Shown piece by piece: positions 3,800-8,445 of a stretch of 10,808 bases of DNA. The stretch is taken from positions 1 through 10,808 of the forward strand of contig JBHHYO010000084.1 in NCBI GenBank assembly GCA_046757665.1, given 5' to 3'. The notes under the pieces were generated by a model. That model ran no database searches and had not been told where the DNA came from. It was given only the letters and a program-made list of their open reading frames with translations. The stretch comes from Nitrospinales bacterium. Its GTDB lineage: Bacteria; Nitrospinota; Nitrospinia; Nitrospinales; JAJDAT01. Numbering within the stretch: position 1 is the stretch's first letter; each line of letters starts with the position of its first letter. The position numbers were made by a program, and so were the translations under genes.

Positions 3800-3861
3800 G
3801 GCGTCTGCCGGCGGCGAAAAAGATTGGAGAGATTTGAAAAATCGCGGCAATATAAATCCGC

Positions 3862-3890
3862 TTGACAACTCCGATGATTTGCAATAACTT
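3862..3890 (+). promoter_or_regulatory. Sigma70-type promoter for tRNA-Asn
   Basis: TTGACA (3862-3867), 17-nt spacer, TAACTT (3885-3890), just upstream of the tRNA. Confidence 0.65.
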
Positions 3891-3925
3891 GCGAAACTCA
3901 TAATCAAACGCGAAATCCCTACCCT

Positions 3926-4000
3926 TCCGGCGTGGCGCAACGGTAGCGCGAGCGGCTGTTAACCGCTAGGTTACAGGTTCGAATCCTGTCGCCGGAGCCA
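3926..4000 (+). tRNA. tRNA-Asn (GTT)
   Basis: Acceptor stem tccggcg/cgccgga, anticodon arm agcgg-ctGTTaa-ccgct, T-loop ggttcgaatcc, encoded CCA. Confidence 0.97.
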
Positions 4001-4012
4001 GATATTAAAATG

Positions 4013-4043
4013 ACCGCCTTTCATCCGAAAGGCGGTTTTTTTA
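4013..4043 (+). terminator. Intrinsic terminator after tRNA-Asn (left copy of the 31-bp direct repeat)
   Basis: Stem ccgcctttc / gaaaggcgg, loop atcc, followed by T7. An upstream A-run allows weak bidirectional use. Confidence 0.9.
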
Positions 4044-4093
4044 TAACGAGTTTTCCGCTTGGGGTTGAATAGCAAGAGGAAGGGGGTTTTGTT

Positions 4094-4194
4094 GTGGGGG
4101 AGATAGAGGCCCAATCTCTCCACGGTATGAGATTGGACCGCCGAGGCATCCTTTCTAGGCCGTGGCCCGGATAAGTCAGCGAGTCTCCCCCCAC
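4094..4194 (-). ncRNA. Candidate structured non-coding RNA (three-way junction with complementary loops), family unknown
   Basis: Closing stem 4184-4194 with 4094-4103. Hairpin A spans 4140-4180 and hairpin B spans 4108-4139. Their loops CCACGG and CCGUGG are complementary. Four stem positions are G-U on the minus strand but A-C on the plus strand. A matching promoter lies just upstream. Confidence 0.6.
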
Positions 4195-4200
4195 GCACTT

Positions 4201-4229
4201 AATGTAACGCAAAGGCCGAGGCGGCGCAA
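4201..4229 (-). promoter_or_regulatory. Sigma70-type promoter for the candidate ncRNA
   Basis: Minus strand TTGCGC (4229-4224), 17-nt spacer, TACATT (4206-4201). The predicted start at ~4194 coincides with the 5' end of the closing stem. Confidence 0.5.
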
Positions 4230-4297
4230 AGGGAAAATGGCGAGAGTTTTTTGGTGTCGATAGTATTTTAAATTCCCTCCCTCCGAAGGAGAAGCTT

Positions 4298-4327
4298 TTG
4301 ACATAACGGATTATTGTAGTTTAGCAT
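4298..4327 (+). promoter_or_regulatory. Sigma70-type promoter upstream of the uORF/fic unit
   Basis: TTGACA (4298-4303), 18-nt spacer, TAGCAT (4322-4327). Confidence 0.55.
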
Positions 4328-4358
4328 GGCGTTGCAAACATCCGGCAAGGAGGGGTTA

Positions 4359-4412
4359 ATGAAAGGGCAAAATCCATGTGGGAGGACGCAGTTTTCTGAT
4401 GAAACCTTTTGA
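4359..4412 (+). CDS. Possible 17-aa upstream ORF (MKGQNPCGRTQFSDETF) overlapping the fic start
   Basis: AAGGAGG at 4347-4353, 5 nt before ATG 4359. Stop TGA at 4410-4412, out of frame with fic. Confidence 0.35.
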   Translation: MKGQNPCGRTQFSDETF

Positions 4413-5250
4413 GCCTAATTGTTTACCCCTCGATTGCATCGACTGGGGAGCCCATGTAACACTTGTCGGAAGGGCAAACGCCGCTCTGGCCCGGTATGAT
4501 GGTATGCTTCAAGGTGTTGTCAACCCGGCGGTGTTGCTTTCGCCCATGACAACTCAGGAGGCGGTGCTTTCATCACGCATTGAGGGAACCCAAGCCAGCA
4601 TGGAGGAGGTACTGGAATATGAAGCTGGGTCAACGGAAAAAATCATACCGGAAAAACATGCGGACATCCAAGAGATTATCAACTACCGCCATGCCATGGC
4701 CGTGGCCAAGGCGCAGTTCGAGATTATCCACCCGTTCCTTGATGGCAACGGCAGGTTAGGGCGTATGCTGATCCCCTTGTTCCTCTACGCCAAGAGACTT
4801 CTCTCAAGTCCCATGTTTTATATGAGCGCCTACTTGGAGGAACATCGTGATGTTTATTATGAACGGTTACAGGCGATTTCCAAAAATGGTGATTGGAATG
4901 GGTGGATTACATTTTTCCTTTCCGCGCTAACGGAACAAGCGGCACAAAACACGGAAACGACGAAGGCGATTATTGACCTTTACGAAAGGTTGAAAAAGCA
5001 AGTAGTCGATGCTACTCATTCGCAATTTGCCGTTCAGGCATTGGATGCGATATTTTCACGACCGGTTTTCCGCAGTTCTCAATTCCAGCAGTTGGCAAAC
5101 ATAAAAACCCGGTCGACGGCGGCGCGAATTCTGAGAAAACTCCGTGAGGTAGGTGTGCTGAAAGTGTTGAAAGAGGGCAAGGGAAGGCGGTCGGCGTTGA
5201 TTATGTTCCCTGAATTGATCTACTTAGTGGAGGGTAAAAGAGTTCTCTAA
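4399..5250 (+). CDS. Fic/DOC family protein with N-terminal inhibitory helix and probable C-terminal HTH; apparent internal in-frame deletion (possibly a pseudogene)
   Basis: Canonical Fic motif HPFLDGNGRLGR (4729-4764) and inhibitory-type motif SSRIEG. ATG 4399 follows GGAGGA (4381-4386). Only a few residues separate EIINYRHAM from AQFEIIHPF, where homologues usually have tens of residues. Confidence 0.88.
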   Translation: MKPFEPNCLPLDCIDWGAHVTLVGRANAALARYDGMLQGVVNPAVLLSPMTTQEAVLSSRIEGTQASMEEVLEYEAGSTEKIIPEKHADIQEIINYRHAMAVAKAQFEIIHPFLDGNGRLGRMLIPLFLYAKRLLSSPMFYMSAYLEEHRDVYYERLQAISKNGDWNGWITFFLSALTEQAAQNTETTKAIIDLYERLKKQVVDATHSQFAVQALDAIFSRPVFRSSQFQQLANIKTRSTAARILRKLREVGVLKVLKEGKGRRSALIMFPELIYLVEGKRVL

Positions 5251-5260
5251 AGTCTACGAG

Positions 5261-5307
5261 ACACAAAATATTTTGTGTAAAGTATTTTGCATTTTGCTTT
5301 ACACAAA
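5261..5307. repeat. Nested palindromes of ACACAAA/TTTGTGT
   Basis: Perfect 18-bp palindrome acacaaaatattttgtgt (5261-5278). Inverted repeat tttgtgtaaag (5272-5282) / ctttacacaaa (5297-5307). Confidence 0.7.
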
Positions 5308-5363
5308 CTCATTAGTGGTTTTTTCCTTGAACGTAATGGGTTTTTTAGGAACTATTGGAATAG

Positions 5364-5393
5364 CCGCCTTTCATCCGAAAGGCGGTTTTTTTA
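5364..5393 (+). terminator. Intrinsic terminator after fic (right copy of the 31-bp direct repeat)
   Basis: Same stem-loop and T7 as 4014-4044. Confidence 0.88.
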
Positions 5394-5509
5394 TGGTGCA
5401 GGGAGCTTTTTGAGAGAACCTTATTTCACTGCGGAATAGTATGGGCGGTCAATGGGATTCTTACTTCAAAAATCCGGGTAAAAATGAAGTAAGGGAAGAA
5501 AGCGGTGTT

Positions 5510-6376: not shown

Positions 6377-8445
<2,069 letters not shown>

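Follow-up and report, generated by a model that had tools for sequence, protein, structure and literature searches.

A three-way-junction fold with complementary loops at the left end of a repeat-bounded fic insertion

The window analyzed here is a whole stretch of 10,808 nucleotides of DNA, and all coordinates are given in its numbering. It includes a 400-bp spacer between a tRNA-Asn (GTT) gene (positions 3926 to 4000, plus strand) and a fic gene. On the minus strand of this spacer, positions 4194 to 4094 can be drawn as a compact three-way junction whose two hairpin loops are complementary to each other. An earlier, sequence-only reading had taken this fold for an independently transcribed ncRNA that has its own promoter, that is carried in the same cassette as fic, and that belongs to no known family. 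The question raised by this locus is whether the fold is indeed an RNA gene, or whether some other property of the DNA accounts for it.

Structure and relatives of the fold

The fold spans 101 nt (4194 to 4094, minus strand) and is built from helices of 10, 13 and 11 bp. Its closing stem, P1, joins GUGGGGGGAGA (4194-4184) to UCUCCCCCAC (4103-4094) through 10 bp, with one bulged G. Hairpin A has 5 + 5 + 3 pairs (GCUGA/UCGGC, UAUCC/GGAUG and GGG/CCU), together with a 2x2 internal loop, an AGAAA bulge and the terminal loop CCACGG. Hairpin B abuts hairpin A with a gap of 0 nt and consists of the 11 pairs formed by GGUCCAAUCUC and GAGAUUGGGCC, which are capped by the 10-nt loop AUACCGUGGA. At the junction, the helices are connected by CUC (3 nt), by 0 nt and by UCUA (4 nt). 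Loop B contains CCGUGG, the exact reverse complement of loop A, and all six bases of loop A can pair with it. Four stem pairs depart from Watson-Crick geometry (U17-G53, U22-G48, G27-U38 and U58-G85), and all four are G-U pairs on the minus strand, an asymmetry that we estimate would occur about once in 16 cases if the strand were random. The stems, bulges and loops that had been proposed for the minus strand, the 6-nt loop complementarity and the four wobble positions are therefore all present in the sequence.

Energy-based predictions recover the same architecture. When 111 nt of the minus strand were folded with RNAfold (-50.2 kcal/mol, z -3.26, with 1 of 200 shuffles as good), both the MFE and the centroid structures matched the proposed three-way junction. 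The plus strand folds more weakly (-43.9 kcal/mol, z -1.80), and 11 of 200 shuffles were as good. We also folded a 190-nt model (4194 to 4005) that continues through a C/U-rich linker (4046 to 4093, minus strand) to a terminator-like hairpin. The junction is unchanged in this model, and the linker, which contains CCCCCUUCCUCUU, is mostly unpaired; the z of -5.26 (0 of 200 shuffles) includes the contribution of the terminator hairpin. In a longer minus-strand model of 299 nt, an upstream sequence, GGAGGGAGGG (4275-4284), pairs with part of the C/U-rich linker (4076-4085), and the resulting helix encloses the entire three-way junction.

How often such a fold arises by chance was assessed against the genome and against the window. 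Among random 101-nt windows of the same genome, 25 of 6000 fold at least as well as the candidate (1 of 2006 when matched for GC content), a comparison in which the candidate's start position is registered on its closing stem and the random windows are not so registered. A sliding scan of 101-nt windows on both strands of the 10.8-kb stretch placed the candidate 5th of 5354 once energies had been adjusted for GC content (z -3.2). Higher ranks went to 7709-7809, which lies within the span of an ORF for pyrophosphatase, to the AT-rich palindrome of 37-137 and to 2876-2976, and some of the higher-ranked windows are inside coding regions. At least six contiguous Watson-Crick pairs between two hairpin loops were found in 16 of 3504 random genomic windows that have at least two hairpins each. 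By combining the random-window, sliding-scan and loop-complementarity rates, we estimate that a 3-Mb genome holds roughly ten to twenty chance loci of comparable quality, of which one to a few would be intergenic. The joint appearance of such a fold and such loops inside a single 10.8-kb window is unlikely (about 5 comparable folds multiplied by a rate of 0.5%), and the same combination is expected across a scan of many windows. The fold is not rare for DNA of this window, and what chance rates say about it amounts to only modest evidence.

The palindrome at 37-137 is located at the start of the contig and has a GC content of 0.20. Given its composition, both of its strands rank with the most stable folds (z values of -4.7 and -4.5).

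A search of the whole window against Rfam 15 at gathering score returned only the SRP RNA and two tRNAs, with no match on the fold. When positions 3990-4400 were searched on both strands at E<=10, five weak matches were obtained, none of which is meaningful for the fold. The only one that touches 4094-4194 is HOXB13-AS1_1, whose 14.7 bits are below its gathering score (60) and which overlaps the edge of the fold by 6 nt. The proposed absence from known families is borne out by this check. The bacterial small SRP RNA (956-1054, 75.8 bits) lies directly upstream of dnaX and overlaps its predicted GTG start by about 24 nt, and the gene order near it (dnaX, recR) is the usual one.

Phage pRNAs, purine-type aptamers and hammerheads are the architectures nearest to the fold; these are resemblances, and each fails the Rfam and junction comparisons. 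The pRNAs of the phi29 type are three-way junctions of about 100-120 nt with paired 5' and 3' ends and two complementary hairpin loops. The fold is similar to them in size, in its end-closed three-way junction and in its mutually complementary loops. However, it has no Rfam match at E<=10 on either strand, it is a single-copy orphan, and its neighbors are housekeeping genes and fic, with no phage packaging genes nearby. In purine-riboswitch-type aptamers, P1 closes two side-by-side hairpins that can be joined by a loop-loop contact, and P1 of the fold likewise closes two adjacent hairpins with complementary loops. Yet junction strands of 3, 0 and 4 nt leave no room for a ligand pocket, no Rfam match was obtained, and what lies downstream of the fold on the minus strand is not a gene but only a terminator and antisense tRNA-Asn. 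Hammerheads and other small self-cleaving ribozymes combine three-way junctions with loop-loop contacts and are frequent in mobile DNA. The hammerhead core motif, CUGANGA / GAAA, is not readable at the junction of the fold, and no ribozyme family matched at E<=10.

Within its own 2.97-Mb assembly (97.6% complete, in 160 contigs, with collapsed repeats possible), the fold is single-copy. One match was found by BLAST and one by R1, a covariance model built from one sequence and its structure. These results reject a multi-copy repeat, a MITE or an IS end, and the finding that the sequence-only reading had named as a challenge to its proposal, namely a multi-copy DNA repeat or IS end, was not encountered.

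The same two tools were applied to wider sets of genomes. BLAST against 61 genomes (60 relatives and the own genome) matched only the own genome, as did R1 with stricter filters in 102 genomes of the order. Among 120 genomes of the phylum compared with positions 4045-4361 by BLAST, five matched, namely the own genome and four foreign ones with matches of 20-32 nt. These foreign matches are apparently coding or C-rich low-complexity DNA, and none of them spans the body of the fold. The match in G060 covers 30 nt, is C-rich and lies at the end of a contig; it overlaps only the 3' strand of P1, and the sequence upstream of it is unlike the fold. Genomes G080 and G078 have matches of 20-25 nt, of which that in G080 apparently lies inside coding sequence and that in G078 is known from its BLAST line, and G113 has a 32-nt match to the spacer. 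Plasmids and phages gave no match to the fold. Metagenome contigs searched with a pattern of the two loops and the bulge, leaving the stems free, yielded four stretches, the best at 8.7 bits and none of them full-length, and a looser pattern applied to viral contigs yielded 26 stretches, with 0 at E<=1.

The homologue searches, which are sensitive only to close relatives or to relatives with identical loops and for which the window's genus is a single genome in the searched set, found no homologue in any set. There is consequently no collection of sequences in which compensatory changes could be counted. The BLASTn and nhmmer searches that had been suggested for collecting homologues returned none, and with zero homologues at the sequence level the fold would not count as a conserved structured RNA family.

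The repeat-bounded fic insertion

The fold, the promoter-like sites around it and fic together form a 1350-bp unit directly after the tRNA-Asn terminator. The unit is bounded by a 42-nt direct repeat on the plus strand, whose left copy (4003-4044) includes the tRNA-Asn terminator and whose right copy (5353-5394) provides the terminator after fic. The two copies are identical at 38 of 42 positions, including all of the last 31, and the 22-nt hairpin core of the repeat occurs exactly twice in the genome, both times at these repeats. The four mismatches are clustered at the left, and we infer that this is the pattern expected if an incoming copy of the repeat had crossed over with the chromosomal one. 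No recombinase, transposase or replication gene was found within the 1350-bp insertion.

Contigs from one sequencing run (X3) would fit a relative that has an empty site; the comparison covered positions 3800-4600, and uncovered parts provide no evidence. In this run, a 3751-nt contig matches 3810-4042 with 6 differences, and its next 664 nt did not align with 4043-4600. Another contig of the same run matches fic from position 4379, with 16 differences in 222 nt (about 93% identical). Among the loci of family relatives that were compared, no empty site was found; recR is present in five of these relatives and the menaquinone gene in four, but within the compared loci a tRNA is present in none.

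The product of the fic gene (ATG at 4399, stop ending at 5250, plus strand) includes Fic_N, a partial Fic domain, SoFic-like_C and the HPFLDGNGRLGR motif, and the inhibitory N-terminal SxxxEG motif is present as well. Relative to homologues of 370 residues (74-77% identity), this protein has an in-frame deletion of 87 residues directly ahead of the HPFLDGNGRLGR motif, which itself is intact. This loss suggests that fic is decaying, and because of it the 1350-bp insertion as a whole reads as horizontally acquired and decaying DNA. Just upstream, a 17-codon frame (4359-4412) with AAGGAGG 5-6 nt before ATG can be read in the sequence and overlaps the fic start codon. Two further Fic-domain matches were observed on other contigs of the same genome.

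A search with the Fic protein identified 27 loci in other genomes. Nucleotide homology to these loci is restricted to positions 4362-5332 of the window, and the 317 bp that carry the fold (4045-4361) therefore lie outside the conserved fic module. This stretch, which forms the left end of the 1350-bp insertion, is without relatives. Related fic cassettes have about 94-150 nt between the left repeat and fic, and the fold is absent from them. Likewise, the fold co-occurs with fic homologues at 0 of the 27 loci when these are searched by blastn, nhmmer and R1, the best score being 11.9 bits (E 7) at L013. Five whole genomes with the closest fic genes also lack it (0 of 5), an empty answer that is weakly informative. 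The proposal that the fold and fic share a cassette thus holds for the window itself, where both lie in the same repeat-bounded insertion beside a tRNA, but the association does not extend to the 27 fic loci.

The arrangement of the insertion, in contrast to the fold, recurs elsewhere. Long direct repeats of local upstream sequence flank fic at 3 of the 11 loci examined, which are the window, L003 and L005; none were found around fic at the eight other loci. At L003, the repeats are 74 nt long (2777-2850 and 4378-4451) and take in the final 26 nt of a gene for a ResIII helicase. At L005, they measure about 130-160 nt (2775-2907 and 4221-4380) and derive from the 3' end of an SNF2 gene. Across the three loci, the repeats range from 42 to about 160 nt with 81-90% identity, and no recombinase is encoded inside. 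These observations suggest that repeat-flanked fic is a small mobile unit or one inserted by recombination.

Transcription signals within the insertion were also considered. The promoter that had been proposed for the fold consists of the minus-strand hexamers TTGCGC (4229-4224) and TACATT (4206-4201). The hexamers, their 17-nt spacing and the placement of +1 on the first G of P1 all hold. However, they match the sigma-70 consensus at only 3 of 6 and 4 of 6 positions (7 of 12 in total, relative to a consensus from which that of the host may differ), and the site (4201-4229) fell below the threshold of the promoter scan and was not reported. The best promoter-like site of the spacer is TTGACA-18-TAGCAT (4298-4327, plus strand), which matches at 10 of 12 positions and is directed toward fic. 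The scan also returned an alternative site on the minus strand, TTGCAA-16-AATAAT (4310-4337, 9 of 12), from which the fold would begin about 108 nt into a transcript of about 300 nt.

The terminator-like hairpin at 4013-4036 was called on either strand. Downstream of tRNA-Asn, on the plus strand, it is succeeded by a run of seven T residues. Its minus-strand face (4036-4013), which is the tRNA-Asn terminator seen from the opposite strand, has the tail CATTTT (CATTTTAATA). The intrinsic terminator that an independently transcribed sRNA should possess can accordingly be recognized in this minus-strand hairpin. If the unit were to adopt a circular form, transcription of fic and any transcription from the minus strand would run toward the same bidirectional hairpin. 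Among sequencing runs, those with the stretch that carries the fold contain it as DNA contigs only, and the best two of them may come from the source sample. The four runs that were compared yielded no usable RNA information, and the RNA run X17 contributes only tRNA-like pieces.

What the fold may be

The fold is truly present in the sequence, and we lean toward the view that it is most likely not an RNA gene but a chance or relic structure in acquired and unconserved DNA. This view is preferred mainly because no relatives were found. The weak promoter, the bounding repeats, the loss of 87 residues from Fic and the sharing of only positions 4362-5332 among cassettes provide the context of decaying acquired DNA. 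A 1350-bp insertion would have been acquired horizontally and would now be decaying, with the fold located in its unconserved left part. The three nested inverted repeats would be fortuitous, or else a relic of what the donor DNA contained. Any minus-strand transcription from the divergent promoter region of fic would cross the fold and stop at the tRNA-Asn terminator hairpin. No function would be required of the fold in this case, and we infer that it has none. Several features argue against a chance or relic origin: the helices nest without leftover sequence, the wobble pairs are biased toward G-U on one strand, all six bases of loop A find partners in loop B, and a promoter-like site would place +1 on the first base of P1. 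Furthermore, the fold persists in the modeled 190-nt transcript that ends at the terminator, although the z of that model includes the terminator. As matters stand, the locus illustrates how a very tidy three-way junction with complementary loops can arise, about as often as chance predicts, in acquired DNA that is not conserved.

A possible, though doubtful, alternative is that the fold belongs to an orphan sRNA gene that was brought in with the fic insertion and that starts near 4194, or near 4303 if the better promoter-like site is used. The junction would then serve as a stable 5' body held together by the loop-loop kiss. The linker segment CCCCCUUCCUCUU would be single-stranded and could pair with a Shine-Dalgarno-like GGAGG, for example ahead of fic, although this pairing with the fic leader was read from the sequence and not computed. 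The RNA would end at the bidirectional hairpin that is shared with tRNA-Asn and, in a circular form, also with fic. Such a gene would be consistent with the better folding of the minus strand and its four G-U pairs, with a loop complementarity of 6 nt that has a chance rate of 16 in 3504, and with the 190-nt model, in which the fold is retained and the linker is largely open. It would also fit a hairpin that is terminator-like on the minus strand too, and the location of the fold and fic in one repeat-bounded unit with divergent promoter-like sites.

Terminator-ended bacterial sRNAs offer a parallel for this arrangement, in that the locus combines a promoter-like site, a structured body, a C/U-rich single strand and a terminator-like hairpin. 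However, the fold differs from them in being unconserved and in having a weak promoter (7 of 12) and a weak U-tail, with just CATTTT on the minus strand. The zero homologues in all searches likewise speak against an orphan sRNA, as do the related fic cassettes, which have their 94-150 nt between left repeat and fic without the fold. In addition, the gene that would be its partner, fic, is truncated.

A more specific proposal, which we consider unlikely, is that the fold is a lineage-private RNA that was acquired with fic as a two-part module and that controls or partners the Fic enzyme. The complementary loops would then lock the compact junction or, by analogy with phage packaging RNAs, link molecules hand in hand. 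In the circular 1350-bp form, the divergent promoters would share one bidirectional terminator. If the fold is an RNA, it would define a new class of structured RNA, one linked to a Fic enzyme. A search of literature records returned no RNA partner of Fic.

It is improbable that the fold acts at the DNA level, as a folded single strand or cruciform 49 nt inside the left repeat that would serve the integration or replication of a mobile fic unit. Such a site would resemble folded recombination sites and single-strand origins. The fold does adjoin the left boundary of the repeat-bounded insertion, and single-stranded DNA that folds also accommodates G-T wobbles. Under DNA parameters, the junction is preserved on the minus strand (-20.0 kcal/mol, z -2.31, 2 of 200 shuffles), compared with a z of -1.51 (19 of 200) for the plus strand. 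The fold also recalls integron attC sites, in that it has imperfect nested inverted repeats, one strand that folds better, and a position at the edge of an inserted cassette. However, the repeat-flanked fic insertions at L003 and L005 have no such element, the insertion carries no recombinase, transposase or replication gene, and the fold is single-copy. Integron-type sites are marked by the boxes GTTRRRY/RYYYAAC, and an attC site was rejected, with no such boxes readable at the base of P1, no integrase, and a fold that is not common to related fic cassettes.

A protein-coding origin is very improbable: open minus-strand frames do cross the fold (a 99-codon stop-to-stop frame at 4320 to 4021 and a 42-codon ATG frame at 4304 to 4176, whose ATG at 4304-4302 is 6 nt past the AATAAT hexamer, where transcription from the stronger minus-strand promoter is predicted to begin), but the 99-residue frame has no homologue in a large protein collection, six-frame tblastn gave no similarity to the own genome or to any fic or relative locus compared, and no ribosome-binding site was noticed before the GTG or TTG starts.

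The inverted repeat downstream of fic

What was found around the fold is more useful than the fold itself. The conserved non-coding signatures of this fic subfamily are a hairpin after fic and the repeat-flanked insertion, not the three-way junction. The hairpin corresponds to an inverted repeat, TTTGTGT-N22-ACACAAA (5272-5307, plus strand), which lies 22 nt past the fic stop in the window and at the same distance in most of the loci that have it. A regex for TTTGTGT-N22/23-ACACAAA found it in the window and at 19 of 24 homologue loci, with L010, L025 and L026 left out for their broken or partial frames. According to record titles, the loci with this hairpin come from several bacterial phyla and from methanogenic archaea. 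The right arm is often repeated about 22 nt farther downstream (5326-5340 in the window).

To count covariation, 19 sequences were aligned; L018 was dropped, its match being 33 nt past the stop and unlike the common form. The outer six pairs of the hairpin are fixed by the regex. At the five inner pairs, changes on both sides were counted in 27 cells, compared with 10.3 +/- 2.4 in shuffled alignments (0 of 500), a measure that is inflated by kinship among the sequences. The inverted repeat could act as an RNA or single-strand hairpin, or it could be a protein-binding site with two half-sites.

RAGATH-35 was considered as a family for the hairpin after fic (5273-5344) and rejected, with a score of 22.1 bits (E 0.014-0.027) that falls short of its gathering threshold (38.9 bits). 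At that threshold, no match to the family was found in the 20 fic loci scanned (L002-L021, out of 27), and none at E<=1 in positions 2190-2320 of L017. An Acido-Lenti-1 RNA match (51.1 bits) was observed at 4599-4644 of L018, a locus labeled Cloacimonas, about 500 nt downstream of its fic homologue.
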